Shown here: positions 1-13,880 of the stretch, piece by piece
Numbering within the stretch: position 1 is the stretch's first letter
Layout: each line of letters begins with the position of its first letter
Program-made: the position numbers and the translations under genes
Notes under the pieces: model-generated
The model's database searches: none
What the model was told of the DNA's origin: nothing
What the model saw: the letters and a program-made list of their open reading frames with translations, nothing else
DNA from: a virus
Strand: one strand, 5' to 3'
DNA: 13,880 nucleotides
Virus genome (UHGV): UHGV-1775278

Positions 1-92
1 CAGCGGGGGTGCCTCCCCCTGGGGATATCCCCGGCCTTACCCCATTCTTTCAAGACACAATGCAAGGCCGCATCCGCATAGGTGCATTACCG

Positions 93-159
93 CAACATTA
101 AGGAGACTTAGGGCAAAAGGTAATCGCCACAAAAAAATCCCTATGCCTCCTTAATGTTG
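93..159. repeat. 13-bp perfect inverted repeat (CAACATTAAGGAG / CTCCTTAATGTTG) with 41-bp spacer
   Basis: Arms at 93-105 and 147-159 are exact reverse complements. Each arm contains an AAGGAG/CTCCTT core. A nested 5-bp inverted repeat TAGGG/CCCTA lies inside the spacer (109-113 and 139-143). Non-coding region with no ORF of 60 aa or more. Confidence 0.6.
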
Positions 160-365
160 AGGATGTGCATTGATGATGATTCGATGCGGCGAGTCCCGTT
201 ACTCTCTGCCGGACCATCATCAATGAACATCTTAAAAAGACCTTCCGTGGCTCAACATGTCTTGTTGTTTACTCCGTAAAGTGCTCTCTCTGAAACCACT
301 TTACGCACTAAACCTGCTGAACTTTGGCTTGCTCGGTGCCAAAGCGAGTCCCTGTATGCATGTAA

Positions 366-375
366 TTTTCTAACA
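366..375 (-). promoter_or_regulatory. Copy 1 of conserved element TTTTCTAACA (minus-strand reading TGTTAGAAAA)
   Basis: Exact 10-mer in the non-coding 1-533 region; one of five copies, all in the same orientation. Confidence 0.5.
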
Positions 376-389
376 CTTTAATTTGTTAT

Positions 390-465
390 TTGCTGGTGGG
401 CGAACAACAACCAATAAGTGACTATCAAGCCCAGCAAGCGAAATGTGGCAACGCTCCACCAGCAA
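390..465. repeat. Inverted pair of Chi octamers within a 10-bp inverted repeat (TTGCTGGTGG ... CCACCAGCAA)
   Basis: GCTGGTGG at 392-399 and its reverse complement CCACCAGC at 456-463. The flanking bases extend the match to a perfect 10-bp inverted repeat (390-399 and 456-465). Non-coding DNA. Confidence 0.6.
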
Positions 466-521
466 GGAAAATTCTAAGTTAAGTTACTCTCACAATCAAT
501 ATGTTCGTTTGATGAAATTAG

Positions 522-531
522 ATTTCTAACA
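522..531 (-). promoter_or_regulatory. Copy 2 of conserved element (ATTTCTAACA, 9 of 10 identical to the other copies)
   Basis: Begins 2 nt after the stop codon of the 406-aa gene. The flanks AAATTAGaTTTCTAACATATT closely match copy 3 (AAATTAGtTTTCTAACATATT). Confidence 0.5.
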
Positions 532-533
532 TA

Positions 534-1754
534 TTATTTCCCATAAAGATCTTCTACGCCCCCATTCTTCTTGTCCCATTCGTTAGCCCACACCCGGCAG
601 GCATCAATAATTTCTTGACGACGGTCGCCCTGCATAAAGGGGATGCTTTCATGAAAACTACTTGGGATACAGGCCACGCTGAATACGGTATCAAACGCAG
701 TCTGTTTGATAGCTTCCAACGTCTCTGGGCGCATTTTCAATTCATCGATCGGCGCATCCTTAGAGTCCATAATCCGGCGATGCAGGCGCGGGAAATCAGT
801 CTCCAGGTACGCCATAATTTTATCTGCCAGGCATTCGTCTATATCGGTATTCCAGTCCGTTTCGAAGCCGGGCAGGCGATAGTAAAGCGGCGTTCCCCAT
901 ACTGATGGGATCACATCCATCGTCAGCAGGCGGTTGGTTCTAATTTGTTGATGGTAATTAGCCGTCAACAGAGCTTCACCACGCTGACCAGTCTCCGCAA
1001 CCAGACCATGCGGGTACTCATGGATATAGGCAATAGCATCCACCCCGTCATACATGAGCGGGAATGTCTCTGGCCTTTGTCCCATACCACAAGCGCGGTT
1101 CAGATCATGACCAAGCTGTGAACACTCTCGTTTCAGCGTTTCAATAATGTTCTGCGCTGCTGCTAACTTTTTACGCAGTGTGACACCTTCGCCTTGATAC
1201 TTAATGCACTGCTGATTCAGCTCTGTTAAACGCTCTTTTAGTTCCCGACGCTCTCTTTTCAGCGCACGGTTATCCTTCTCCGCAACATCCAGTCGTTTTG
1301 ACAGGCTGGCTGGATAGTCTTTTTTGTAACGACTCAAATCGGCTTCTGCGGATTTGCGCAGTGTGTTTGCCTGTTCAAGACGCGCTTCCAGATTGCCGAT
1401 CTCACTACGCATACTCGCGGCAAATTGATTAACAGCATCGCCAAGACTTTCAACTGTCGCTGATACGCCTGTGACTCGTGAAAAACGGAGCAAGCCATCA
1501 TTAACAGCTTGTTGATATTCCTCAAACTGATCCACCAGCTTGTTGTAATCAACCGTCCCTTCCTCAAGTAGCTGGTTGATCTCCGCGACCAGGTTATCAG
1601 TCGTGGCAATGACGCTCTCATGTAACCGTCTGGACAGGTCATCCCCCGGATTCCGCTTTTGAATAAGGGCGATCTGTGTCCGCAGCGTTTCAATCGCGGC
1701 TGAGATGATTTCCAGATTAGAAGTATCAGTTTGTTGACTCATTGCAGTTCCCAT
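534..1754 (-). CDS. Hypothetical protein, N-terminal coiled-coil plus C-terminal globular domain (406 aa)
   Basis: Long uninterrupted minus-strand ORF. The N-terminal ~200 aa is charged and Leu-rich with heptad-like spacing (e.g. LEARLEQANTLRKSAEADL, RERRELKERLTELNQQ); the C-terminal ~200 aa is non-repetitive. A second in-frame ATG at 1742 has GGGA about 6 nt upstream, so the true start may be 1742. Element copy 3 and the terminator of the upstream operon lie just 5' of it. No family recognised. Confidence 0.7.
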   Translation of the reverse strand: MGTAMSQQTDTSNLEIISAAIETLRTQIALIQKRNPGDDLSRRLHESVIATTDNLVAEINQLLEEGTVDYNKLVDQFEEYQQAVNDGLLRFSRVTGVSATVESLGDAVNQFAASMRSEIGNLEARLEQANTLRKSAEADLSRYKKDYPASLSKRLDVAEKDNRALKRERRELKERLTELNQQCIKYQGEGVTLRKKLAAAQNIIETLKRECSQLGHDLNRACGMGQRPETFPLMYDGVDAIAYIHEYPHGLVAETGQRGEALLTANYHQQIRTNRLLTMDVIPSVWGTPLYYRLPGFETDWNTDIDECLADKIMAYLETDFPRLHRRIMDSKDAPIDELKMRPETLEAIKQTAFDTVFSVACIPSSFHESIPFMQGDRRQEIIDACRVWANEWDKKNGGVEDLYGK

Positions 1755-1770
1755 TGTTTTGCAAAATTAG

Positions 1771-1780
1771 TTTTCTAACA
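1771..1780 (-). promoter_or_regulatory. Copy 3 of conserved element TTTTCTAACA
   Basis: Located 17 nt upstream of the 406-aa gene start and downstream of the terminator at 1823-1849. A TAAAAT -10-like hexamer lies just 5' of it on the minus strand. Confidence 0.55.
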
Positions 1781-1822
1781 TATTTTATTAGTATGAGAAC
1801 AAGATCGAAAGATGTGATAAAC

Positions 1823-1849
1823 AAAAAACCCGCTAATCGGCGGGTTTTT
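1823..1849. terminator. Intrinsic terminator hairpin, bidirectional (A-run, CCCGC stem, 6-nt loop, GCGGG stem, T-run)
   Basis: Sequence AAAAAACCCGCtaatcgGCGGGTTTTT. On the minus strand the hairpin is followed by TTTTTT and sits directly after the stop of the 1856-2155 gene, closing the VRR-NUC operon. Confidence 0.65.
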
Positions 1850-1855
1850 GAGCGG

Positions 1856-2155
1856 TTATTGTGTCATTGCCTGGTAGATAAAATACACGATGCATACCGG
1901 TACGATAGCCCATTGCAGCAATGAAAGCAGCCTCATGGCTGTCATTGGAGTAACTCCGTCTACGTATTCCTTCTCTGACATTTTCCCTAACCAACTAACC
2001 GACAAAAGGGTCGAGTTCTCCCCCATTTCCAGCTCCCTGAGGGCTTCCCGGATTAAAGGCGCTGTTACCACCTTGCGGGCGGTGTTGAGCGTAATGCTCC
2101 GCGTCCTCCCGGCGTCATCGGCAAACGCCAGGTTCACATGATATTTTTTGCTCAA
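1856..2155 (-). CDS. Small hypothetical protein with C-terminal hydrophobic (probable transmembrane) segment
   Basis: The ORF track gives 1856-2170, but that start has no Shine-Dalgarno. An in-frame TTG at 2155 has GGGAG 8 nt upstream and overlaps the upstream stop as TTGA. C-terminus LLSLLQWAIVPVCIVYFIYQAM is hydrophobic. No family recognised. Confidence 0.5.
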   Translation of the reverse strand: MSKKYHVNLAFADDAGRTRSITLNTARKVVTAPLIREALRELEMGENSTLLSVSWLGKMSEKEYVDGVTPMTAMRLLSLLQWAIVPVCIVYFIYQAMTQ

Positions 2156-2352
2156 TGTACAAACTCCCAATCATCAGCGCCTGTACTTTCCGGGGTAATG
2201 TGAACCTTATCACCAGTGACAATATTCCGAGCCTCTATTGTTCCATTGCTGTGTTTCAACAACTCAACACACAATGGTTGCTGCCAGGAACGACGGCGAG
2301 CAACAACGTTAGCACCAGCAGGGATAAGTTCAGCCACGTTAAGTAAACGCAA
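2152..2352 (-). CDS. Small 66-aa protein, paralog of the 11762-11959 gene; tentatively DUF2829/Tad2-like
   Basis: TTG start with GGAGA 7 nt upstream, 14 nt after the VRR-NUC stop. Shares with the other copy the layout A..G.A.V.RR..W near the N-terminus and DW(E/I)(F/V)V at the C-terminus (GANVVARRRSW ... GADDWEFVH). Family assignment is from memory of the family pattern, not a search. Confidence 0.5.
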   Translation of the reverse strand: MRLLNVAELIPAGANVVARRRSWQQPLCVELLKHSNGTIEARNIVTGDKVHITPESTGADDWEFVH

Positions 2353-2366
2353 AACGATTTCTCCGT

Positions 2367-2675
2367 TTAATCAAGACAAACATATTCCGTGATAGCTTTT
2401 ATGGCTTCAGCGGCACTGCGCGCCTCAAAGCAGTAGTAACCTGCTTCGGTGAGGCGAGTCATCCAGACGAGTTGTTCGGGAGTCAGGCGATTTCTCCCAT
2501 GTTTCATCTCAATGCGCATTCCGTGGTATCCCCCACAAGCAAGGTCTATAGAAAGATCGGGATATCCCTTCTTTTGGCCCTCTGCCACCATTTTTATTGC
2601 CGTCCTTATGCCTCGCAGACCGCCGTTTGGAGTGGCGTGTGTATGCTCATACACATAGCGCATATTGCGATACAA
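2367..2675 (-). CDS. VRR-NUC domain nuclease (PD-(D/E)xK superfamily)
   Basis: Motifs HATPNGG, KGYPDLSI, GMRIEMKHGRNRLTPEQ and a C-terminal EAGYY..EARSAAEAIKAI helix match the VRR-NUC pattern. The only canonical start is TTG at 2675, but the frame stays open to 2810 and the extra codons still look like VRR-NUC helix 1 (HYEQVRVLDWL). Confidence 0.75.
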   Translation of the reverse strand: MYRNMRYVYEHTHATPNGGLRGIRTAIKMVAEGQKKGYPDLSIDLACGGYHGMRIEMKHGRNRLTPEQLVWMTRLTEAGYYCFEARSAAEAIKAITEYVCLD

Positions 2676-2812
2676 CCAATCCAGGACGCGTACCTGCTCG
2701 TAATGCTCATGGTTCCTTTTGATTAGATCTGGGTTTTTCTCCAGTTCTCTGAGAGCTGCGGCATGTGGGGACGTTTCAGAATATTCACTGCGACGCCTTC
2801 TTTTCCTCGCTA

Positions 2813-2822
2813 TTTTCTAACA
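2813..2822 (-). promoter_or_regulatory. Copy 4 of conserved element TTTTCTAACA
   Basis: Lies at the head of the VRR-NUC operon; the TAG inside the element is the stop that opens the VRR-NUC reading frame. Confidence 0.5.
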
Positions 2823-2996
2823 CACCCATTGATAGTAAATAAGCGAAATAATAACAACTGCGTTAGATTTGTAAAACAAGAGAGATACTACTCAAGGCTG
2901 GGCTATATGCAACAGGTAGGATTTGCTTTTAGAGTAAAAAGTGACCTTAATCAACAAGGAGGGTAAATCGCATGGCATTTACCCAACTTGTTATTT

Positions 2997-3257
2997 TTAA
3001 AGGTTTATTTTATCCGGTTCGGATATTTCTGTGATTGTCTTGTCGATTGCGATCAACCACCCTTCATAGGTTAAATCATCAACAAGCTCTACCAGTTTGT
3101 CTTCTGTATGAGGGAAGTATACCCAGCTCCAGCTCGCTGGGTTTTCTGCTTTTCGCAGCGTAAAAACCTTCTTGTAACGGTGAAACTCAAGGACATACCC
3201 CTTCGATATGGAATATTCCTTTAGGTCTTCGACCGTAAACCTACGATTCTTTCGCAT
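2997..3257 (-). CDS. Hypothetical protein (86 aa)
   Basis: ATG start 2 nt after the stop of the 144-aa gene (TAGccATG) with a G-rich stretch upstream. Last gene of the operon that contains the giant gene. No family recognised. Confidence 0.5.
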   Translation of the reverse strand: MRKNRRFTVEDLKEYSISKGYVLEFHRYKKVFTLRKAENPASWSWVYFPHTEDKLVELVDDLTYEGWLIAIDKTITEISEPDKINL

Positions 3258-3259
3258 GG

Positions 3260-3694
3260 CTACCCCATGATTCGATATTTCTCTATTGACTCGTCGTAAC
3301 TTGTGTACACGTATGGCTCTGTATCATCAGCATAAGGTGCGACTTCCAGAGCATGAACGGGATTGTATACCGCGTCATTTTCCAGGCGATCGCTCGAATA
3401 CAGATGCCCAGCCAAAACCGTAAGCGCCGGGCGACTCATTTTGTAGATCTCTGCCACATCACTATCTACAACTTGTCCAAATGATATGTCGCCGCGCTCC
3501 AGCAATATCGTTTTGAGCGCGGGCCACCACGGACCATAAAGGTGATAAAGCTGTGGATTTTTCTTCAGCCTTTCTACCATGCCATCAAGATAAACTGTCA
3601 GGTATTCTTCTTCACTCCTGCCATTGAGTGCCTGCGGCAAGATTTCCTCAAGGTAGGATTCCGTCGGTTTTACAGTGTCAATTAGTGTCGTCAT
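3260..3694 (-). CDS. Hypothetical protein (144 aa), immediately downstream of the giant methyltransferase-helicase gene
   Basis: ATG at 3694 lies 36 nt after the giant ORF stop. Same strand, acidic protein, no family recognised. Confidence 0.6.
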   Translation of the reverse strand: MTTLIDTVKPTESYLEEILPQALNGRSEEEYLTVYLDGMVERLKKNPQLYHLYGPWWPALKTILLERGDISFGQVVDSDVAEIYKMSRPALTVLAGHLYSSDRLENDAVYNPVHALEVAPYADDTEPYVYTSYDESIEKYRIMG

Positions 3695-3701
3695 TCAAAT
3701 T

Positions 3702-3719
3702 CGGCCCCGGTTGGGGCCG
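3702..3719 (-). other. GC-rich hairpin (CGGCCCC ggtt GGGGCCG) between a Shine-Dalgarno sequence and the start codon of the 144-aa gene
   Basis: 7-bp perfect GC stem with 4-nt loop. On the minus strand the order is TAA (giant ORF stop), cagat, AAGGAG, hairpin, aatttga, ATG. Confidence 0.55.
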
Positions 3720-3730
3720 CTCCTTATCTG

Positions 3731-6700
3731 TTAGGCCGCATCGGCGATTATTTTACGCAGTTCATCTACCGAGTAACGCGTAGATACCATCCATGCCGGA
3801 CGGTCAAAGTTCACATCAGCAACCGGGTTTGCTTCAAAATTCCAGAAACGCCCGCCAATCTTCTTAATCGCGTCCTTGGCGTTCCGTATTGTCGAGGAAC
3901 CGGGCTGATCGGCAATGAGATAAACGGCTCCCACATCTTCACTGACACTCCACCAGCGCCCGCGAACACGGGCTTTAGCGCGAATCGGCTTATCATTAAC
4001 CACAATGATATAGTCATCATTCGCCGCTTCATCAGCTCTGGCTTCAGCCACTGCCGCCTGCTCTTCTCTTTTGCTTTCAGCCTGCTCAAGCCTTTCCGCG
4101 ATCTCTGATTCAGTGGCCCCGCCGTTTTTCAGCGATACATAGTCCTGCCACGTTGCCGATTTGAGCGCATCCGGCAACTCATTCACATAGTCGCCGTCTT
4201 TCAACTCACGGGCGCGACGGGTAGCCATTTCTACCAGGCGATTAACAGAAACAGCATCAGCAAAATCGTCCTTACTAATGTGTTTTTCATCAAATGCATT
4301 GATGACAGCCCCCACCTTAATCCACTGCGCTGCTGGCGAATCCAGAGGATTATCGGCCTGAACAATGGCTAATTTCGCTCCATCGACACCATTATTAGCC
4401 AGCTGCTCCAATGCCGACCAGCCATCGGCATCGCTGAGTGATTTATATTGCTCAAACAATGCATCGCGCCAGGCCACCAGCGCAGCTCGTGTTTTCTCAA
4501 TTTTCGCCGTAATTTTCGCGGCCTTCACCTGATTAAACATCCGTTCAATGTCATCAGTGTTGCTAAAGGCTTTCATCCTGCCCTGGAATAAACGGTATGC
4601 CACCACGGTCTTCCAGAAAGATTCCAGCCCTTCTCCGGACGGTTTACGGAACAGGCTAAGAATATCTTCAGAAGTAACTTTATTAAGTGAGCGACTGGAC
4701 AAACCACGCCCTGCCATCCAGTTTTCAAACTCCTGGGAAACATCATCCATCGTGGCCTGTGCCCCCCATGCCTGCATTCCCTGGATGTAATCATATCCAT
4801 ACAATGCCTGGAGGAATCCCTCGCCGTCCACGACATTCAGCGGGTTATCACTGGCTTGTATTTTTGCCACTTCACGCTTCAGCGCCTCATCGTTGCCATC
4901 AGGGTAAATCCACCGCTCAGGCGCTATATCCGATGCTCGCCCGATTTTTTGACCTATTACGCCATCATAAGCCGATGACAGTGCAATCTGACCATCATCG
5001 GTGCGATAAGCCCAGTATTTAATAGCTGAACCACCGCCCCATACTCTACCAGGCTTCCCGGCAGTGACATTCATTACCCCATTGCGAATAGCATCATAGA
5101 ACTGATCGCGCGTAAGTGTTGTTGATAGCTGGTGGCATTGAACACCACGTGCAGCTGTTTCACGCGATTCTGCAACTCCCTCTTCAAAGGTTACCGATTC
5201 AATTATCAGGTTAAAGGGCAAAAATAATGCCGTACCCGGAGAACGAGAGTAACGACTAGCCACATCCAGCCAGGATATGCGGCACGTACACCCGCCCCTT
5301 TCCGCATCAATGGCGGTAACACGAACAATTGCTGTCGTATTGTGATTCTCATCGATGATCGCGCGATAATGGCTGTCCTTGTGCAACAAGATATTTTTCT
5401 CAGTGCGTACATACTCCTGTGGGTTCTGCAATACATCGGCATCAAGCTCCAGAACCCCGGCTTTAATCGCACGTTCCAGATCACCACGGGAACGTTTCAT
5501 AACGGTGTCAGCGTCTTTAGCTCTGGTGATCGCAAAGCGTAGCTCCCGCACACGTTTTCTGTAGTCTCGCAACTGTTCCAGAACATATTTCTGCCCGTTC
5601 CTGTTCGTCCCCGCTTTAATCAGGTCGTCAAGATTGCGCTGGTAATGCTCTACCTGCTCCATCGCGCTTTTCAGTTCTGTCTCCATCATGCCGATATCTT
5701 TCCCGGCAGCATTCGCCGCTTTCAGGTAGTTATCGAGAGCATTATTGGCTTCGCGTAGGGCTTTCAGTTTCAGACGTTCTTCACGCTCTTGCGCCTGACG
5801 ACTCATGATTGCACGGCGTTCTTCCGGATTTGCCGCCAGCATAATGGCGCGTTCATCTGCGTCATCCGCATCACCATTGGCGATCTCTGACATGTCGGAG
5901 GTCATCACCATATTGATCCAGTCCTTCTTACGTTTCAGCGTATCCAGACGGAAGTCGTCGAATGTGCCTTTGCCACAATAGTAGTGAACATTGACCTTTT
6001 CTTGCGGTGAACCTACGCGCGCACCGCGCCCATTTCGTTGGTCGATACTGGCTGGTGTCCAGGGTAGTGTCAGGTGGTGGATATCGGTTGTCCCGATGTG
6101 CAGGTTAATACCTACTTCAGCCTTCTTGTTACAGATTATGATGCGCGTGCGACCTTCGTTATAGTCGGCGGCAATACCTTCCATGCCCTCAAGGCCAGCA
6201 TCATTTTTAGCTGAGAGATAATCCTCATATTGGGCAAGTTTGCTGTAGTAGGTTTCCCATGCACCTTCTTTGTATTCACCGTTTTTATTTGGCGTAGGTT
6301 CAGTAGGCTTATTCACCTTCTTCAGCTTGACGCCGCCAGCCTGGCTAACTGTCGTCGCATTGATAATGCCTATCTCCTGCTCCGGCATTTGCAGTGCACT
6401 GGCAATAATACGGCGCAGCTTCTGGTGCTGGGCTTTTTCATCAATGAAGACGATTTGTTTACCGTTCTTCAGACCTTCACGAAGGTTTTCGATCAGCGCG
6501 GCATACTTCGGCGGGATGGGGTGTGATACCTGCTGCATATCAATACCGGCAGCCGCAATGGCCTTCAGTATTTCAGCTTCCAGTTCAATGCCAGCACGTA
6601 TTTCAACATGCGACGGATGTTCGCTAAAGGTGGTCTTCACTACCTTGCTGGTACGCGTACTGACCAGCCCACCAGCGCCATCTTCTTCGGCCTCGTCTGC

Positions 6701-9700
6701 ATCATCTGCCACTTTACCGCCAGCTACTTTTGGCAGGGCATCAGCAATAGCTTTTACCTTGTCTGCAAGCTCAACGGGGAACTGGAATGTAATCGCACTG
6801 GCATACAGATCAGGATCTATAGCAACCTTATCCATGTCGCGGATGATGGAGAAGATGAAATCATCCGGTTTTTCGTTTGTGATATGCCCGTTTTCATCGA
6901 CCGTCAGCGCATCTTTACTACTTAACTCCTGTGCACGCTTACGAAGTTCTTCGTAAATGGCCTCTTGCTCTCCTGTCATCGGGATCTGCAAGGTATTCTC
7001 GACAATATCAGGGATTTTTACCGTCGCCCCGACGTCCGCAGCAGTCTTCAGAGTAGTCCAGCGATGGAAAATACCACGCAGACCATCCAGGTTCTGGAAG
7101 CCCACCAGCCCCTGCTTCTCTTCCACCTCACCGGAAATTTTCTGAACCTGAACTGTGGCTGTTTTACCGAACACGCGAACGAAATCATCCGGCGTAACAA
7201 TACCCATGCGCATCCACTCTTCCTGCGGAATGACAGTAGACAGCATGTTGAAAGCATCAATCGGGCTGTTCACCAGCGGTGTTGCCGTCAGCATAACCAC
7301 ACCACGCCCGTTGTTGCGTTTCATCATGTACGCAGCTTTTACAGCCATATCACGAGCCATTTTGGATACTGCCGGGTTAGGCAAATATGCCAGTTGCCCC
7401 GCTTCGCGCCCGGCGCTAAAGGAGTTGCGGTAGTTATGCCCTTCGTCGGCAATTACGCTATCGAAGTTCATATCCTCAAAGTACGGGATATTCTGCTTCT
7501 TCGTTGTACCGGTATTTGCGGCCTGGTCCTTAATCTTGTTCTTCTTCTGCGCGTCACGGTGTTTGCCAGATGCCAGGTCAAGACGCCCCATTTCCACAGC
7601 ATTAAAGACCGCTTGCTGTGAGTTTTCCTCAATGGTTTCTTCTCGTAGCGGGATAGACGCGAATTGCTCTTTTGTCATGATGACCGTTCGCCAATTTGAC
7701 GACGGGATCATGTTCATGCGCTGAACGATAACGGCGCTGGCGGACTCTTTCACAACATTTCTGGTAAGAGCCTGCCCGTTACTGTCGAGGCGTGGTTCGC
7801 CATTTTCATCAAGCACCGGCGCGGTCAGAATATTTCCGCTGTCATCACGAACTTCATCCAAACCGATAAACATCATATTAGCGAAGGCATCAGCACTGTA
7901 GAAACTCTGTGCCTCGTGATACCAGTTCTGATAAACCGCCTTCGGAACAACAATACACGTGCGTTTAGTGCGACCTGTTTCGAAGTTATACGCCTCAAGC
8001 GCAAGCGCGGTCGTGGTTTTACCCAGCCCGGTGCCAAATCCCATGATGCCGCGCCCATCTTCTGATAAGCGACGAACTTCTTCATTCTGATAAGTCAGAG
8101 GAATGCGCTTCCCACTAATCCCCTCCAGGCCAAGCGGTGCGTCAGAATGCGTAAACGGGATGAAGCCATTAAATGCGTCGTTATAGTCGCGGGCTATCTG
8201 ATCAGCCTGCGGGTGAGTGCGTAACCAGTCGTTGAAGCTAATTTCCAATTGAGCAATCTTATCCAGGTACTCGTTAGCGTTCTGCCCACGCGGTTTAATG
8301 CCGTTCAGGTAGTTTTCTAACTGGTTCAGGAAGCCGTCTTTATTGTTGGCCTTCTTGAACTCATTCCCGTTTTTGCCGTTTACGGTTCGTAGTTGATAGC
8401 CAGTAAATACCCCGTCCTTACCTTCGTAATCGTCCGGAGATACCAGAATGCCGTCCTCAACCTTAAGGTCGGGTTCTGTATACTTAAACTCGTCATAGCC
8501 CTGCTCTGCCAGGAACTCTTTTATCAAGCGGCGATCCAGCCAGCGGGCGTTCAGATTAACGGTGACTTTATTTAGTGGCGTGAAAATGCGTTTCTCTTCG
8601 ATTTTCGCCAACTGACGCTCAAAGTTCGCTTTCTGCTCACCTGTTGACGCATCACGCCAGCCCACCAGCAATGCTGTTTTGGTTGCAATATCGCCGCTGG
8701 TGGCGCGGTCCATCGGCAGCAGGCAGCCATACCCATCAATAGCGATATCATCAAATTTCGCCAGGTATTCCAGAGCAGCATCGTCGTCTCCTGGCAGTTC
8801 GCCAGCAAACGCCTCACGAAAATCGTCCAGTGTGATTGGATTAAGTGCCACGTCACTGAAAAGGTGGGTTACAACTTGTTCCGGGCGTGTAAAATCAATA
8901 CCGGCAGCACCATCCGTTACATCAAGTCGTCCAGCAAGGAGGTCAGAAGCAGAGCCGTCCTGTTTCACGTTGCCAGTGAAAGTCATCCAGTTTTTAGCGC
9001 CAGCTTCAGCAATCCCATTCAGCTTAATCGCGTGCGGCGGACCATACTTCGCAATTTCGGCTTCCGCCAGGCGCGCGGCATCAGCAAGTTCATCATCAAC
9101 ATTTTCCCCCAGATTACGCTTATCAAGCGCCTTGTTGATCAACTGCCCTATCAGTGCGCCGCGCATAACGCGTTCTCTGTCTTTTTCTCTCTGCTTGCCA
9201 GCAAAGCGAATCATTGCCGCTACTTCATCACTGATAACCGATGGATAGTCGGACGCGATCGCCGATATCTGGTCCCATGACAACGCCAGAATGCCATTTG
9301 TTGACTGAAACGCGATCTGCAGATCGCCAAACGTCGAAACACCATATCGGCTTACATCAAGCGCGGAGGATTTGGTTGTCGTGTCCTTGACCCATTTCAG
9401 GCCATCAAACTCATGCCAGATGCCGCCTACAAGGCGTTTATCGCCCACTTTCGCGCCCTGCCATGCCTGAGTAGTTACGCCGAGCAAATCCCAATTAATG
9501 CGGCTTTCAAAGCGGCGCGATAGAGCGGTTTTCATCGACTCATTGGATACACGACCGTCCTTTTTCACCACCAGGGTATTGCGGAAGCTGGTACGCTCCA
9601 TATCGCCGTAAACAAATCGCTTCCCTTCGGTTGTAAACCATTTTCCTTTGAGGAAGGTATCCCAAAGGACGTTTGCCGATTTGAGCGTCGAATCATCCGT

Positions 9701-10687
9701 ATCGGGGATCATCTCCAGAAAGGCTTCCGGGTGTTTACGCAATACCCATACGTCCACCACGGTATCTGTACCTGATTCACTGAACGTACCGGAAGGCATA
9801 CGATGCGCGCCCAAAAATTCCGCTTTACGGCTGACTTTATCGCGCAATTTTTTGTATTTCGTACCATCAGTCATGCCATTCGGCACCACCAATACGATAA
9901 GCCCACCAGGTTTAACCTTGTCGATCGTGCGCAGCACAAAGTAATTGCCAACGTTCTTCTCGTTTGCATATGCCGGATCAAGCCCTGCAACGCCGGAACG
10001 GCCTTCGCCAAACGGTACGTTACCAACAGCGTGATCATACATTGCGTCTTTCGCCGCCAGAGCCTCGAACGCCCCAATGTTCACATCGTCTTCCGGGTGC
10101 AACAGCTGGTTGATTCGACCGGAGATCGGAGACAGCTCGGCGCTGGTCATTATCATTCCCTGCCGTTTTGTCTCCTGGAAAATACCCGTGCCAGCTGATG
10201 GTTCCAGTACGTGACCGCCATCAATACCGTAGTCAGCAAACAGCTCCCATATACCTTCAGCCATAAACTGTGGTGTGTAGTATTCGTATTGACTGCCTTC
10301 GCCGTCAGTAAGGCCGCCTTCACCTGTATACCCTGCAAGAATCTGACGCTGTTCGTCAGTTAATTTCGCCCCATCGAATCCGGGCGGAAGGGAATTAAGA
10401 AGATCTACTGCGGCGTTGTTTGCTGCCCGCCGTGTTTTTTGAATGCTGACACCATCGACTTTCTTAACGCCAAAGGTCGCAACAGATCGCGGTTTATGCA
10501 ACCGACTAACAATTTCAATCAGCGCCCCAATGCTGGTGGCCTGGCTAATTGAATCAATTATTTTGTCCAAAGGAAGCCCCCTCAAAACCGTTAAATCCGC
10601 CTGTAGCGGTACGGTTTGAAAGGGTATGGAGTGTGTTAATTTGGAAGAATAAGAGCGGAAAAGGTCAGGCGATACGAACGAACTCAC
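3731..10687 (-). CDS. Giant fused N6-adenine DNA methyltransferase / SNF2-like helicase (2318 aa), DarB-like anti-restriction candidate
   Basis: Single 6.96-kb ORF. Codons verified by hand: methyltransferase motif I LEPSAGTG (10184-10207) and motif IV NVPFG (10007-10021); helicase Walker A GFGTGLGKTT (8012-8041), motif II DEGH (7436-7447), LTATP motif and motif VI QRNGRGAR (about 6017-6040). About 760 C-terminal residues have no recognised domain. GTG start with weak Shine-Dalgarno. Confidence 0.9.
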   Translation of the reverse strand: MSSFVSPDLFRSYSSKLTHSIPFQTVPLQADLTVLRGLPLDKIIDSISQATSIGALIEIVSRLHKPRSVATFGVKKVDGVSIQKTRRAANNAAVDLLNSLPPGFDGAKLTDEQRQILAGYTGEGGLTDGEGSQYEYYTPQFMAEGIWELFADYGIDGGHVLEPSAGTGIFQETKRQGMIMTSAELSPISGRINQLLHPEDDVNIGAFEALAAKDAMYDHAVGNVPFGEGRSGVAGLDPAYANEKNVGNYFVLRTIDKVKPGGLIVLVVPNGMTDGTKYKKLRDKVSRKAEFLGAHRMPSGTFSESGTDTVVDVWVLRKHPEAFLEMIPDTDDSTLKSANVLWDTFLKGKWFTTEGKRFVYGDMERTSFRNTLVVKKDGRVSNESMKTALSRRFESRINWDLLGVTTQAWQGAKVGDKRLVGGIWHEFDGLKWVKDTTTKSSALDVSRYGVSTFGDLQIAFQSTNGILALSWDQISAIASDYPSVISDEVAAMIRFAGKQREKDRERVMRGALIGQLINKALDKRNLGENVDDELADAARLAEAEIAKYGPPHAIKLNGIAEAGAKNWMTFTGNVKQDGSASDLLAGRLDVTDGAAGIDFTRPEQVVTHLFSDVALNPITLDDFREAFAGELPGDDDAALEYLAKFDDIAIDGYGCLLPMDRATSGDIATKTALLVGWRDASTGEQKANFERQLAKIEEKRIFTPLNKVTVNLNARWLDRRLIKEFLAEQGYDEFKYTEPDLKVEDGILVSPDDYEGKDGVFTGYQLRTVNGKNGNEFKKANNKDGFLNQLENYLNGIKPRGQNANEYLDKIAQLEISFNDWLRTHPQADQIARDYNDAFNGFIPFTHSDAPLGLEGISGKRIPLTYQNEEVRRLSEDGRGIMGFGTGLGKTTTALALEAYNFETGRTKRTCIVVPKAVYQNWYHEAQSFYSADAFANMMFIGLDEVRDDSGNILTAPVLDENGEPRLDSNGQALTRNVVKESASAVIVQRMNMIPSSNWRTVIMTKEQFASIPLREETIEENSQQAVFNAVEMGRLDLASGKHRDAQKKNKIKDQAANTGTTKKQNIPYFEDMNFDSVIADEGHNYRNSFSAGREAGQLAYLPNPAVSKMARDMAVKAAYMMKRNNGRGVVMLTATPLVNSPIDAFNMLSTVIPQEEWMRMGIVTPDDFVRVFGKTATVQVQKISGEVEEKQGLVGFQNLDGLRGIFHRWTTLKTAADVGATVKIPDIVENTLQIPMTGEQEAIYEELRKRAQELSSKDALTVDENGHITNEKPDDFIFSIIRDMDKVAIDPDLYASAITFQFPVELADKVKAIADALPKVAGGKVADDADEAEEDGAGGLVSTRTSKVVKTTFSEHPSHVEIRAGIELEAEILKAIAAAGIDMQQVSHPIPPKYAALIENLREGLKNGKQIVFIDEKAQHQKLRRIIASALQMPEQEIGIINATTVSQAGGVKLKKVNKPTEPTPNKNGEYKEGAWETYYSKLAQYEDYLSAKNDAGLEGMEGIAADYNEGRTRIIICNKKAEVGINLHIGTTDIHHLTLPWTPASIDQRNGRGARVGSPQEKVNVHYYCGKGTFDDFRLDTLKRKKDWINMVMTSDMSEIANGDADDADERAIMLAANPEERRAIMSRQAQEREERLKLKALREANNALDNYLKAANAAGKDIGMMETELKSAMEQVEHYQRNLDDLIKAGTNRNGQKYVLEQLRDYRKRVRELRFAITRAKDADTVMKRSRGDLERAIKAGVLELDADVLQNPQEYVRTEKNILLHKDSHYRAIIDENHNTTAIVRVTAIDAERGGCTCRISWLDVASRYSRSPGTALFLPFNLIIESVTFEEGVAESRETAARGVQCHQLSTTLTRDQFYDAIRNGVMNVTAGKPGRVWGGGSAIKYWAYRTDDGQIALSSAYDGVIGQKIGRASDIAPERWIYPDGNDEALKREVAKIQASDNPLNVVDGEGFLQALYGYDYIQGMQAWGAQATMDDVSQEFENWMAGRGLSSRSLNKVTSEDILSLFRKPSGEGLESFWKTVVAYRLFQGRMKAFSNTDDIERMFNQVKAAKITAKIEKTRAALVAWRDALFEQYKSLSDADGWSALEQLANNGVDGAKLAIVQADNPLDSPAAQWIKVGAVINAFDEKHISKDDFADAVSVNRLVEMATRRARELKDGDYVNELPDALKSATWQDYVSLKNGGATESEIAERLEQAESKREEQAAVAEARADEAANDDYIIVVNDKPIRAKARVRGRWWSVSEDVGAVYLIADQPGSSTIRNAKDAIKKIGGRFWNFEANPVADVNFDRPAWMVSTRYSVDELRKIIADAA

Positions 10688-11009
10688 CGTCTATTGCGTG
10701 TTCACCCCCGGCATCATCTCGCATAACAGCACACTGACCTGGAAGGCCATAACGAACAACCATACAACGAACACCATCGCCACAACCGCTCTGAGTCCTG
10801 TTTTGTCTCCTCTCATACGATTTTACCCGTTCAAGTGTTCGCCTTGTTGATTCGAGATAATACTGTTTGTCGATTGCATCCGTACTATGCAGCAAGTAAG
10901 CCACCCCGGACACATCAAACGGAGGCGATCCAATCTCCATTGTCACCCACTCACGGTTATCCGGTTCAAAGTAGCTGAGTATCTCTTTTTTTCTTCTTGT
11001 CAGTCTCAT
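10665..11009 (-). CDS. Hypothetical protein (114 aa) whose 3' end overlaps the giant gene start by 23 nt
   Basis: ATG at 11009 with GAGG 8 nt upstream. Sits directly downstream of the palindromic control region. The C-terminal third is low complexity, so the true extent is uncertain. Confidence 0.5.
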   Translation of the reverse strand: MRLTRRKKEILSYFEPDNREWVTMEIGSPPFDVSGVAYLLHSTDAIDKQYYLESTRRTLERVKSYERRQNRTQSGCGDGVRCMVVRYGLPGQCAVMRDDAGGEHAIDGEFVRIA

Positions 11010-11020
11010 GTTTGCAACCT

Positions 11021-11052
11021 CTTATTGTGGGATAGCTCTATCCTACAATAAG
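11021..11052. promoter_or_regulatory. 32-bp near-perfect palindrome (CTTATTGTGGGATAG ct CTATCCTACAATAAG), candidate operator
   Basis: 15-bp arms at 11021-11035 and 11038-11052 with one mismatch. Lies 12 bp upstream of the 114-aa gene start, in the divergent region between the giant-gene operon and the lysin gene. Confidence 0.6.
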
Positions 11053-11067
11053 AAACGTAACAACATT

Positions 11068-11083
11068 TATGATTTAAATCATA
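11068..11083. promoter_or_regulatory. 16-bp perfect palindrome TATGATTTAAATCATA, candidate operator
   Basis: Exact self-complementary 16-mer in the same divergent intergenic region, 16 bp from the 32-bp palindrome. Confidence 0.5.
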
Positions 11084-11243
11084 TGGTTAATTAATGAGAA
11101 AGCTCAAACATTCAGTATACGGTTAACACTCAACATGCCACGGACAAGGAAGGCTTAGGGGCGTACCGGGGTAAGAAAATTGCTGCCATGAAAATCACAT
11201 ACTCCCCATAGTTTATGTTCATTTGTTAATCAGAGGGGTAGTT

Positions 11244-11729
11244 ATGGTAAGTTCCGATCCTCGTTGGCTGATGGAAGCCCGTAAACATATTGGCCTGACC
11301 GAAATCAAAGGGGCTAAACACAATCCTGAAATCGTCCAGTTCTGGCGGGATATTAAACGCGGTGGGATTAAAGACGATGAAACTCCGTGGTGCGCAGCAT
11401 TTGTTGGCGCAATGTTAGAGCGTGTGGGTATCCGCTCAACAAGATTTGAGTCGGCAAAATCCTATCTGGATTGGGGCGAGAAACTGGATACACCAGCATA
11501 CGGATGTATCGTTGTATTTACCCGCGTAGGCGGTGGGCATGTAGGCTTCGTCGTCGGACGCCGCGCCAATGGCGATCTGCTTGTCCTTGGTGGGAATCAG
11601 GGGGATGCGGTGAATATTCGCGCATTCCCGACATCAAGAGTGTCGGGCTATCGCTGGCCTGCTGGCGAACCACGCAATACAGCTCTGTTACCAGTCGGAG
11701 ACGCAGCAACCTCAACCAATGAGGCATGA
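11244..11729 (+). CDS. Papain-like Cys/His hydrolase (CHAP / NlpC-P60-like, TIGR02594-type), candidate endolysin
   Basis: ATG at 11244 has GAGGGG 5 nt upstream; the ORF-track start at 11223 is a TTG with no Shine-Dalgarno. Candidate catalytic Cys in ETPWCAAFVGA and His in GGGHVGFVVG, spaced as in CHAP-type amidases. Only plus-strand gene in the window. Confidence 0.75.
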   Translation: MVSSDPRWLMEARKHIGLTEIKGAKHNPEIVQFWRDIKRGGIKDDETPWCAAFVGAMLERVGIRSTRFESAKSYLDWGEKLDTPAYGCIVVFTRVGGGHVGFVVGRRANGDLLVLGGNQGDAVNIRAFPTSRVSGYRWPAGEPRNTALLPVGDAATSTNEA

Positions 11730-11759
11730 AAAAAGCCCCGGCCAGGCCGGGGCATCACG
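11729..11759 (-). terminator. Intrinsic terminator for the minus-strand Rha operon (GC hairpin GCCCCGGCC a GGCCGGGGC followed by T-run on the minus strand)
   Basis: Perfect 9-bp arms at 11735-11753. The minus-strand reading is hairpin then TTTTTT. On the plus strand the hairpin follows the lysin stop but has no T-run. Confidence 0.7.
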
Positions 11760-11761
11760 CT

Positions 11762-11959
11762 TCAAGTCACGATCCAATCATTACCGACTATATCAGCCGT
11801 CGCTAAATCAACTTCCCGGATCTGGAGTCCATTAATACAAAACCACCCGGTAGTAGAGCAATTATCAGGCCAGGCCCATACACCAACACTCCATGCTTTA
11901 CGGCGGCACACTTCAGCCTGTCCTTCGCTGATTTTTTTTACCGCCTGCATGATGTCCAT
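11762..11959 (-). CDS. Small 65-aa protein, paralog of the 2152-2352 gene; tentatively DUF2829/Tad2-like
   Basis: ATG at 11959 has GGGGAGG 6 nt upstream and overlaps the Rha stop (TGATG). Carries the shared motifs GQAEVCRRKAW ... IVGNDWIVT. Last gene before the terminator. Confidence 0.55.
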   Translation of the reverse strand: MDIMQAVKKISEGQAEVCRRKAWSVGVWAWPDNCSTTGWFCINGLQIREVDLATADIVGNDWIVT

Positions 11960-12666
11960 CACTCACCTCCCCAACCGATCACCTGGAATTGCCCCATTTT
12001 GGGGTGATACCAGCGTTTTCCTCGGTGTTCAGCCTCAGACATCATCCGGTTAAAGGCATTCATAAAGGGAGATAAGGCCACAATAGAACGACGCGACAAT
12101 ACCCCCTCTGGCGTTAAAAACTCATGCGTATCGGTGGGGATACGGTAAGCATTGACCAGGTTACGGCATTTGGCTTCAGTCAGGCCGCATTTCGCCGCTA
12201 ACTGGCGGTAGCCAATGTAACCATCTGGCATGTTACCCTTCTTGATTTGCTCGACGGTTTCTACCACCTGGCTAACCTTTGACTCAACAACATGAAGCCG
12301 CTTTTGCTGCTGAACTGCATTTGCAGCCATTGCGGCGATCATCTCTATTTCGGTCAACGGCTGGCGTACTTGTTCTTCCAGTTCGCGCCAGCGGTCCACC
12401 AGCCGGGCGGTGAATTCCGGAGAGAGCTGCGCAACGACAATAATGCTGTCTCGTTTGCCTTGCTCGCCTTCGAAGACGTAAGCCTCGACACTACGGCGTA
12501 GTCCTAAGTTATTGATTTTTTCGAAAACCTGCAATGCAGGAAGTTGAATAACTCCAGATTTAGCCAGGCGCTCTATTGATATTTTTACGTTATCTGGACG
12601 ACTTCCCACCAGCTCCGCGATCTCAATGCTGGTCATTGATGGCTTTTCAAGAATGCAGATATCCAT
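11959..12666 (-). CDS. Rha-family phage regulatory protein (antirepressor-like)
   Basis: N-terminal MTSIEIAELVGSRPDNVKISIERL matches the Rha-family start pattern. Preferred start is the ATG at 12666 (GGAGG 7 nt upstream, ATGA overlap with the upstream ORF stop); the ORF-track start at 12711 has no Shine-Dalgarno. Confidence 0.8.
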   Translation of the reverse strand: MDICILEKPSMTSIEIAELVGSRPDNVKISIERLAKSGVIQLPALQVFEKINNLGLRRSVEAYVFEGEQGKRDSIIVVAQLSPEFTARLVDRWRELEEQVRQPLTEIEMIAAMAANAVQQQKRLHVVESKVSQVVETVEQIKKGNMPDGYIGYRQLAAKCGLTEAKCRNLVNAYRIPTDTHEFLTPEGVLSRRSIVALSPFMNAFNRMMSEAEHRGKRWYHPKMGQFQVIGWGGE

Positions 12667-13088
12667 CAGTGTGCCTCCGCAATTCCGGGATTGGTAATAT
12701 TGCGATACCAAGGATTAGTGTTTGGTTGTGATGAAGTAGAGAAACGGCCAGTCAGGACGCCATGTTGATCAGGGATCAGAGAACGGGCTTCTTTTTCAGT
12801 TGCGGCAATTGCGAAGTGATCACAGTGTTTTTGCAGGGAGTGGAAACGCCAGATAAATTCCGGGCGCGAGCAAGGATTGGCATTAACCATAGTTACGGCC
12901 TCATTCGTAGGTTTAACAACCTGCGCCCCGCTGCTAAACGGGTGGCAGGACGTGACGGGGTTAGCAGACTGGCACGAATGAAACCAGCAGGCCGAAGCCT
13001 CCCCATCACGCCCCACCATAATTCGGGCGTAACGTGGTTTTACGGACACAAAAATACCGCAATATCGGATATCTGCGGTTGTCCGCAT
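12666..13088 (-). CDS. Hypothetical Cys/His-rich protein (140 aa), uncertain
   Basis: Open frame between element copy 5 and the Rha gene, ending in an ATGA overlap with the Rha start. Six Cys and several His (CWFHSC, SCHPF, HCDHF). No convincing Shine-Dalgarno at either candidate ATG, so it could instead be a long 5' leader. Confidence 0.35.
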   Translation of the reverse strand: MRTTADIRYCGIFVSVKPRYARIMVGRDGEASACWFHSCQSANPVTSCHPFSSGAQVVKPTNEAVTMVNANPCSRPEFIWRFHSLQKHCDHFAIAATEKEARSLIPDQHGVLTGRFSTSSQPNTNPWYRNITNPGIAEAH

Positions 13089-13240
13089 TCGTATTCAGGC
13101 TGCTAAACCCGGTCGCAGAATTTGCTACGACGACATGAATATAAGCCTGAAAACATGGAAGATCAACTAAAAATTTCAGCAATGGATGACTTCAGTCGAT
13201 GATGCAGATCATACATTCCGATTTAGAAACAGCAAATTAA

Positions 13241-13250
13241 TTTTCTAACA
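13241..13250 (-). promoter_or_regulatory. Copy 5 of conserved element TTTTCTAACA, with inverted partner TTAGAAA 12 bp away
   Basis: Lies in the intergenic region between the stop of the partial gene (13305) and the 140-aa ORF / Rha operon. TTAGAAA at 13223-13229 is the reverse complement of TTTCTAA at 13242-13248. Confidence 0.5.
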
Positions 13251-13304
13251 CAAATTATCGGGCGAGCATTTTCCGATCATTGGGATGCTTTGTAGACACA
13301 CAGG

Positions 13305-13880
13305 TCATCCCCTAAATCCCGCAGGGATTAACCAATCCTCACGGTCAAATTCAGACCGATAGCCACGCTGTTTCATCAGGTCAAAGGCTTCACCAATGGT
13401 TGCACACCCCTGGGAGCCAGAATAATCCATTGAGAAATCCAAGGCACTGGATTGTTTAGGCTTATTCACTGCGGTAGCGGCACTACGTATCCATGCAAAT
13501 TTTTTTGCCAGCTTTTCAGCGGTACGATACAGAGCCTGCCGTTTTGTGTGCCCCTCGTCTGAACGACGCTTTGCAGCTCTCGCTTTTGCCGCCGCCAGGC
13601 AGTGGTTGGTATGTTCTTCCCTGATTACTGTTTTTTTATCCAGTACCCCGTTATCCGTTTGAGAACTATCTGCTGGTGAAGCCTTTGGCTGAACCGCGCA
13701 TGATCTTTCTCTTCTTTTGGCTATAGAGTGACTCTTATTTTCTATTGGCTGTTCATTTTGAACATGGGGGGACTTGTTCAATTTGAACAGGGGGTTCCCA
13801 GTTTCAAAAAAATAACGAACCTTTGAAATCAACTGCTTAACCAGTTTTGTGGCGTTGGCAAATTTGATGCCCTGCTTACC
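13305..13880 (-). CDS. Hypothetical protein, 5' end outside the window (partial)
   Basis: The minus-strand frame is open from the window edge to the TGA at 13305-13307; the ORF-track TTG at 13832 is probably internal. Basic, Ala/Lys/Arg-rich middle region. No family recognised. Confidence 0.5.
   Translation of the reverse strand, partial: GKQGIKFANATKLVKQLISKVRYFFETGNPLFKLNKSPHVQNEQPIENKSHSIAKRRERSCAVQPKASPADSSQTDNGVLDKKTVIREEHTNHCLAAAKARAAKRRSDEGHTKRQALYRTAEKLAKKFAWIRSAATAVNKPKQSSALDFSMDYSGSQGCATIGEAFDLMKQRGYRSEFDREDWLIPAGFRG

Follow-up and report, generated by a model that had tools for sequence, protein, structure and literature searches.

DarB of phage P1 is a virion-associated protein with about 40 copies per head (PMC9024508). 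Its life history comprises packaging that depends on Hdf, DarA, DdrB and Ulx, ejection together with the DNA, and protection of this DNA in cis (PMC9024508, PMC12810830, PMC12707154; for the protection see also PMC5512222). Against EcoK and EcoB the in-cis protection is a genetic phenotype (Iida et al. 1987; Piya et al. 2017; both as cited in PMC12707154 and PMC11109961). Here we describe a darB gene in a stretch of 13,880 nucleotides from the UHGV virus genome UHGV-1775278 (the window, to which all positions refer). An earlier note, made from the letters alone, had recognized N6-adenine methyltransferase (MTase) and SNF2-like helicase motifs in one giant open reading frame (ORF) at 3731..10687 and had proposed the architecture of P1 DarB, leaving it to alignment whether the gene is a DarB ortholog or belongs to a distinct family.

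A similar combination of domains has been described for the MTase-SWI2/SNF2 'dyad' polyvalent proteins (Iyer, Burroughs, Anand, de Souza and Aravind 2017, PMC5512222) and for the 'DarB-like antirestriction' proteins of Bcep22-like and other podophages. The likeness of the window protein to the polyvalent dyad extends to an LPD36-like N-terminal domain, an EcoKI/TaqI-like N6A MTase with TP cap and a SWI2/SNF2 ATPase with inserts. The difference is that only the MTase and helicase modules are common to the window protein and the polyvalent and podophage proteins, with a query coverage of 14-45% and an identity of 24-33%.

The relationship to P1 DarB (AAQ13985.1, 2255 aa) is much closer. The two proteins form one co-linear BLASTP alignment with 42.9% identity, which spans window residues 1-1953 and P1 residues 1-1941 (residues are numbered from the TTG start described below, i.e. 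the numbering of the earlier note minus 39). The C-terminal ~135 aa (window 2143-2279, P1 2131-2255) give a weak end-to-end match of 26% identity, for which the E of 2e-5 comes from a two-sequence search without composition correction. Domain order and length are the same in both proteins and the catalytic motifs are identical, including the unusual NVPF. As in P1, ulx lies directly downstream of darB:

3260..3694, minus strand: ulx homolog, 144 aa; 48% identity to P1 Ulx (E 3e-46); PHROG 'Ulx-like anti-restriction' (4.9e-59)

The backbone is that of a P1-like myovirus phage-plasmid, and the surrounding genes are P1-like (pmgS/R/M, icd/ant, repL). The upstream neighbours of darB differ; these are prt/pro in P1, but a CHAP-domain gene and the immI region in the window.

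Escherichia phage D6, a P1-like myovirus, persists as a plasmid prophage. It matches the window with 91.8% nucleotide identity over 96% of the window length, and its gp15 is 94.7% identical to the window protein over the full length. Both genes have the same TTG start, Shine-Dalgarno sequence and neighbours (ulx-like, pmgS/R/M-like, icd/ant, repL), and D6_14 is annotated as 'similar to P1 gene ulx'; the ~5% of residues that differ between the two proteins lie mostly in 1-30 and 1521-2140. The E. coli plasmid p92_MLI108-1 (NZ_CP116989.1) is 99.8% identical to the window over 100% of its length. At least 80% of the window is carried by more than 100 plasmid records from Escherichia, Salmonella, Shigella and Klebsiella, and the 3' 4 kb of darB are present in 98 of 5426 complete E. 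coli genomes (~2%), plasmid-borne every time. The source of the window can be identified as a D6-like, P1-family phage-plasmid of E. coli. The genes hdf, darA, ddrA and ddrB, which lie outside the window, were found in D6 and in NZ_CP116989.1, where they show 80-96% identity to the D6 proteins (tblastn); their link to the window's own replicon is made by proxy through this 99.8%-identical plasmid.

In a full-length homolog search, relatives of 2220-2320 aa formed a continuum from 98% down to 36% identity. Their contigs, from Enterobacterales and Aeromonas, mostly measure tens of kb, and many of these are 80-100 kb long. Two branches of the DarB family are the P1 type, with a cluster of 16,340 sequences, and the D6 type, with a 90%-identity cluster of 4,384 sequences. 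Because of the full-length co-linearity, the downstream ulx, and the P1-like phage-plasmid with the other Dar genes in close relatives, the window gene is assigned to the DarB family as a true ortholog and not to a separate family. This answers the question that the earlier note had left to alignment, and the architecture it had proposed agrees with the co-linear alignment and the ulx synteny.

Neither the gene nor its architecture nor the darB assignment is new: GenBank annotates D6_15 (ASR76325.1 / YP_009914692.1) with the words "similar to P1 gene darB; defense against restriction". With near-identical copies on ~2% of the complete E. coli genomes the discovery value is small. The gain is descriptive and consists of a corrected start codon, a domain map of DarB with two confident structure models, and the exchange of a C-terminal cassette.

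Reading frame and domain organization

The ORF is uninterrupted on the minus strand, as had been noted before, and comprises 2318 aa if counted from GTG. Its 5' part was resolved into the following features:

3731..10570, minus strand: darB coding sequence, 2279 aa; TTG start at 10570-10568, stop codon at 3731-3733
10577..10583, minus strand: Shine-Dalgarno sequence GAGGGGG, 6 nucleotides upstream of the TTG start, kept in D6
10571..10687, minus strand: 39-codon 5' extension of the maximal ORF, a leader that is probably untranslated

Codon 40 of the maximal ORF aligns with both Met1 of P1 DarB and the annotated start of D6 DarB, and of the 58 family members in the alignment at least 90% begin there too. 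Three in-frame stops interrupt the 39 upstream codons in D6, and the RefSeq protein in the 99.8%-identical plasmid has a length of 2279 aa. Taken together with the Shine-Dalgarno sequence, this makes the TTG at 10570 the most likely start of translation, with a protein of 2279 aa rather than 2318; the larger size given before is correct for the ORF from GTG, but not for the likely protein. The first 39 codons are almost certainly untranslated.

From the N-terminus to the end of the helicase, the protein is divided as follows:

10481..10570, minus strand: residues 1-30, positional equivalent of the capsid-targeting sequence of P1 DarB
10286..10480, minus strand: residues 31-95, N-terminal helical domain (LPD36-like), 66% identity to the P1 type
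9671..10285, minus strand: residues 96-300, gamma-class N6-adenine DNA MTase domain with YYTP97, EPSAGTG123 and NVPF184
8111..9670, minus strand: residues 301-820, MTase-helicase linker with beta-rich and helical sub-domains, no family match
7031..8110, minus strand: residues 821-1180, lobe 1 of a SNF2-type superfamily 2 (SF2) ATPase with GTGLGKT846, DEGH1042 and TATP1095
6431..7030, minus strand: residues 1181-1380, insertion between the ATPase lobes including an acidic stretch
5966..6430, minus strand: residues 1381-1535, SF2 lobe 2 (Helicase_C) with QRNGRGARVG1511

In hidden Markov model searches the Pfam families N6_Mtase (190-320), SNF2-rel_dom (879-1089, 1e-13), ResIII and Helicase_C (1503-1559; all in the 2318-aa numbering) scored above their gathering scores. 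Thus the MTase and helicase motifs of the earlier note are confirmed, in the order in which it had placed them. The MTase motifs EPSAGTG (I) and NVPF (IV) are the same as in P1 and, apart from the V of NVPF, invariant in the 58 family members, which span 36-98% identity; the SF2 motifs (I, II, III and VI) reach a conservation of at least 90% in the same set. This conservation argues that both predicted activities, MTase and ATPase, matter. Motif IV (residues 184-187, ~10010-10021, minus strand) deviates from the canonical NPPF/Y; its V is at least 90% conserved among the 58 members, P1 included.

The first 30 aa of P1 DarB are sufficient for capsid targeting (PMC9024508). At the corresponding position, the window protein has its fastest-evolving segment relative to D6, with a ratio of nonsynonymous to synonymous substitution rates (dN/dS) of 0.31 for residues 2-30. 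The domain that follows resembles LPD36, the helical domain which precedes an EcoKI/TaqI-like MTase in polyvalent proteins (Iyer et al., PMC5512222). The N-terminal ~110 aa had been described as lacking a motif. This holds insofar as the isolated N-terminus has no significant Pfam match, but the region contains the LPD36-like domain and the position of the P1 targeting signal.

An AlphaFold2 model of residues 1-840, built from the 58-sequence alignment, has a mean predicted local distance difference test score (pLDDT) of 82. In this model the Rossmann-fold part matches BsaXI, HsdM subunits including EcoKI M, PacII, M.BseCI, M.TaqI and CamA (Foldseek E 6e-9 to 1e-5). The window protein is thus similar to EcoKI HsdM and to M.TaqI and BsaXI in the fold of residues ~96-300 and in motifs I and IV. 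It differs from these MTases of type I restriction-modification (R-M) systems and of the gamma class in that no HsdS-type subunit or recognizable target-recognition domain was found for it, and in that its MTase is fused to a motor and to putative virion-targeting parts. The 520-residue linker between MTase and helicase shows 33-42% identity to P1 and contains many invariant residues; when isolated, it had no significant Pfam match.

Compared with D6, dN/dS is 0.088 over the whole gene, 0.03 in the MTase and ATPase lobes and 0.13 in the post-helicase and distal C-terminal segments. The last 139 residues show no amino acid change. By these measures darB is not a pseudogene, and the parts called uncharacterized are constrained coding sequence.

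The C-terminal third and its alleles

No Pfam family was found after the helicase, and three isolated C-terminal pieces also had no significant match. When a profile of the family alignment was compared with PDB sequences, only weak hits to SNF2 proteins and EcoKI M were obtained, none of them significant after motif VI. PF28555 from the precomputed annotation was considered as a possible C-terminal family and set aside; it is named 'Helicase_dom' and stands after SNF2-rel_dom in the position-ordered listing.

With the C-terminal 759 aa as query, a word-indexed homolog search yielded nothing but near-identical fragments. An exhaustive phmmer search with the same 759 aa against 1.84 billion representatives found 106 proteins. 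The full-length ones among them are mostly ~2000-2480 aa long and are matched at the same post-helicase position. Since most matches cover only the first ~240 residues after the helicase, the distal ~520 aa are essentially confined to the DarB family.

For the C-terminal third AlphaFold2 gave a confident model as well (mean pLDDT 85, predicted template modelling score 0.55), so that the segments without recognized motif at both ends of the protein now have structure predictions. Four parts can be distinguished:

5456..5965, minus strand: residues 1536-1705, long-helix bundle or coiled coil, common to many other large proteins (mostly ~2000-2480 aa); 30% identity to P1
4961..5428, minus strand: residues 1715-1870, beta-rich domain with a Tudor/SH3-like barrel; 14% identity to the P1 type
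4031..4888, minus strand: residues 1895-2180, helical domain without fold relative; 15% identity to the P1 type
3734..4015, minus strand: residues 2186-2279, small alpha/beta tail; 23% identity to the P1 type

A Foldseek search of this model against the PDB gave no match at E<=1e-3, and the similarity to a Tudor/SH3-like barrel is only local. Judged from the model, the four parts have no informative structural relative. The helical domain is preceded by a conserved YPD..(L)K motif (Y1889, P1890, D1891, L1897, K1898). The C-terminal third can be aligned across the family, with invariant positions up to K2236 and W2260 in the tail, which are conserved family-wide. Identity to the P1 type is 57-62% in the catalytic domains versus 14-23% in the distal C-terminal parts (~560 aa). 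These comparisons identify the C-terminal third as the DarB family's own fastest-diverging region and not as a new addition; it is equally uncharacterized in P1. Hence the earlier description of this third as free of recognized motifs holds for Pfam, PDB profile and Foldseek searches, but the region is homologous to P1 DarB and not specific to the window gene.

Two D6-like lineages meet within darB. From 5760 to 13880 the window has no mismatch to contig L008, which encodes the family member P0014. From 1 to 5700 it is near-identical to contig L007, encoding P0012, and 66-92% identical to the P0014 contig. The crossover interval lies just behind helicase motif VI:

5700..5956, within the minus-strand gene: crossover interval between two D6-like lineages, residues ~1539-1624

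The darB of the window can thus be recognized as a recombinant, in which a different C-terminal allele is joined after the helicase. Nowhere do the two lineages diverge more than in the 3' third of darB (66-71% nucleotide and 65-70% amino acid identity). Between the C-terminal alleles the synonymous divergence (dS) is saturated at ~2 and dN/dS is ~0.1. This indicates that the alleles are old, under purifying selection, and shuffled rather than recently diversified. Diversifying selection on the C-terminal cassette was also considered; it was rejected on the same two values.

Proposed function and rival readings

The window gene very probably acts like darB of P1, that is, its product would be made late, packaged, ejected and active in anti-restriction in cis. 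By orthology with P1 DarB, the gene would yield a late protein of ~250 kDa, which would enter the procapsid by means of its N-terminal ~30 residues in a process that requires Hdf, DarA, DdrB and Ulx; each head would hold tens of copies. Ejected with the DNA, the protein would protect the same DNA in cis from type I enzymes of the EcoK/EcoB type. The SNF2 motor could track along the entering duplex while the fused gamma-class N6-adenine MTase modifies the DNA. Alternatively, the motor could displace or block translocating type I complexes. Since conservation of the two catalytic centres extends from Aeromonas to E. coli, we prefer a DNA-tracking MTase or a complex-displacing motor, as suggested by Iyer et al. 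(PMC5512222), over passive shielding, which seems less likely. The fast-evolving C-terminal ~650 aa may form a lineage-specific module for partner binding or targeting.

Several points weigh against a P1-like role. Packaging, ejection, in-cis protection and enzymatic activity of the D6 type are all inferred from P1, and even there the literature describes the mechanism of DarB as undefined (PMC11109961, PMC12707154). When darB is carried on a plasmid, restriction alleviation dependent on Chi and EcoKI sites can look like anti-restriction, which complicates older assays, and some plasmid-based read-outs of DarB anti-restriction are artefacts at the DNA level (PMC11109961). Residues 1-30 share only 14% identity with the capsid-targeting sequence of P1, and with NVPF as motif IV, MTase activity is not guaranteed. 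The ddrB homolog of the D6 type (D6 MF356679.1 26333-27697; NZ_CP116989.1 53243-54628) encodes ~455-461 aa, about half of the ~109-kDa P1 DdrB (PMC9024508). The hierarchy and dependencies of Dar packaging in the D6 type may therefore differ from those in P1.

A possible modification of the P1-like reading is that the window gene is a DarB ortholog whose diverged C-terminal module confers a target spectrum other than that of P1 (other type I families, BREX or other defences), so that its function would be allele-specific. The low identity of the distal C-terminus to P1 relative to the catalytic domains would fit this, as would the near absence of detectable distal-region homologs outside the DarB family and the swapping of two C-terminal alleles (~65-70% identical) by recombination among D6-like proteins that are otherwise 95-100% identical. 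Yet the low dN/dS and the saturated dS do not point to an arms race, the two lineages are distinct in their flanking genes as well, and binding of lineage-specific capsid or Dar partners would be an equally possible role of the region. On balance we regard an allele-specific target spectrum as unlikely. The same low expectation attaches to the related idea that the C-terminal ~650 aa are an exchangeable specificity cassette which chooses defence systems or capsid partners, the D6-type alleles, among them the recombinant allele of the window, countering other restriction systems than P1 DarB.

Much less probable still is that the gene encodes a host-side defence or R-M enzyme of the plasmid-prophage (type ISP-like or a SNF2 protein as in DISARM, Zorya or Dpd), which would protect the lysogen from other phages. 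MTase-helicase fusions do occur in type ISP enzymes too, and LlaBIII is a weak structural match; however, this match is confined to the fold of the MTase. Type ISP enzymes (LlaGI/LlaBIII) consist of an Mrr-like nuclease, a helicase, an MTase and a target-recognition domain, whereas in the window protein the MTase precedes the helicase, the reverse order, and scans with Pfam, NCBIfam and PADLOC models detected no nuclease domain anywhere. The protein also matches the DrmD, ZorD and DpdE models, but weakly: it scores 43 bits against a cut-off of 610 for NCBIfam DrmD and 32 against 500 for DpdE, the PADLOC matches reach at most 37.5 bits, and the best-scoring stretches listed are short parts of the helicase or MTase. 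A family cut-off score over most of the model was not reached for any of DrmD, ZorD and DpdE. Short matches far below cut-off, the lack of a detected nuclease domain and the reversed domain order thus fit this reading poorly, and the gene is orthologous and syntenic to darB-ulx of P1, whose product is a virion protein (PMC9024508). The idea of darB as an incipient pseudogene, a relic that decays or has lost its function, can practically be dismissed. Its only arguments would be the great length of the gene and the near-cognate TTG start; the frame of 6.8 kb is intact, so that the frame disruption which the earlier note had named as a sign of a pseudogene was not found, all catalytic motifs are present, dN/dS stands at 0.088, and copies persist both in complete E. 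coli genomes (3' 4 kb, 98 of 5426) and in the cluster of 4384 sequences at 90% identity.

For the mechanism of DarB, the domain map and the natural recombinants could guide the design of constructs such as domain deletions and cassette swaps.

Neighbouring genes and sequence features

Further genes assigned in the window are the following:

534-1754, minus strand: PmgS-like head morphogenesis protein
2367-2675, minus strand: VRR-NUC nuclease, PHROG 'Holliday junction resolvase'
2997-3257, minus strand: 86-aa protein, function not assigned, phrog_6844
11223-11729, plus strand: CHAP-domain peptidoglycan hydrolase, PHROG 'baseplate hub subunit and tail lysozyme'

Directly upstream of darB is an insertion of ~530 bp (~10643-11182), which is not present in phage D6 or contig L007. 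It contains an ORF of 114 aa (10665-11009, minus strand) without significant Pfam or PHROG match, which is also present in NZ_CP116989.1 and L008 and annotated there as hypothetical. In another frame, the 3' end of this ORF runs into the 39-codon extension of darB. Scans for promoter and terminator consensus sequences around darB gave no better results than shuffled sequence did. EcoKI and EcoBI sites are absent from darB, but less than one would be expected by chance, and this is no evidence of site avoidance.

Two RNA elements were recognized by Rfam:

12938-13023, minus strand: C4 antisense RNA, 71.9 bits
13092-13144, minus strand: a1/b1 target element of C4 RNA, 52.2 bits

Together they constitute a P1-type immI immunity region upstream of icd/ant.

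Chi sites (GCTGGTGG) occur 13 times in the 13.9 kb, where ~0.4 would be expected by chance, and 8 of them lie within darB. Their positions are 392, 5128, 8696 and 10532 on the plus strand and 456, 1532, 3950, 4474, 6669, 7102, 8662, 12396 and 12606 on the minus strand. This count agrees with the Chi enrichment that was also reported for P1 and P1 darB (PMC11109961).

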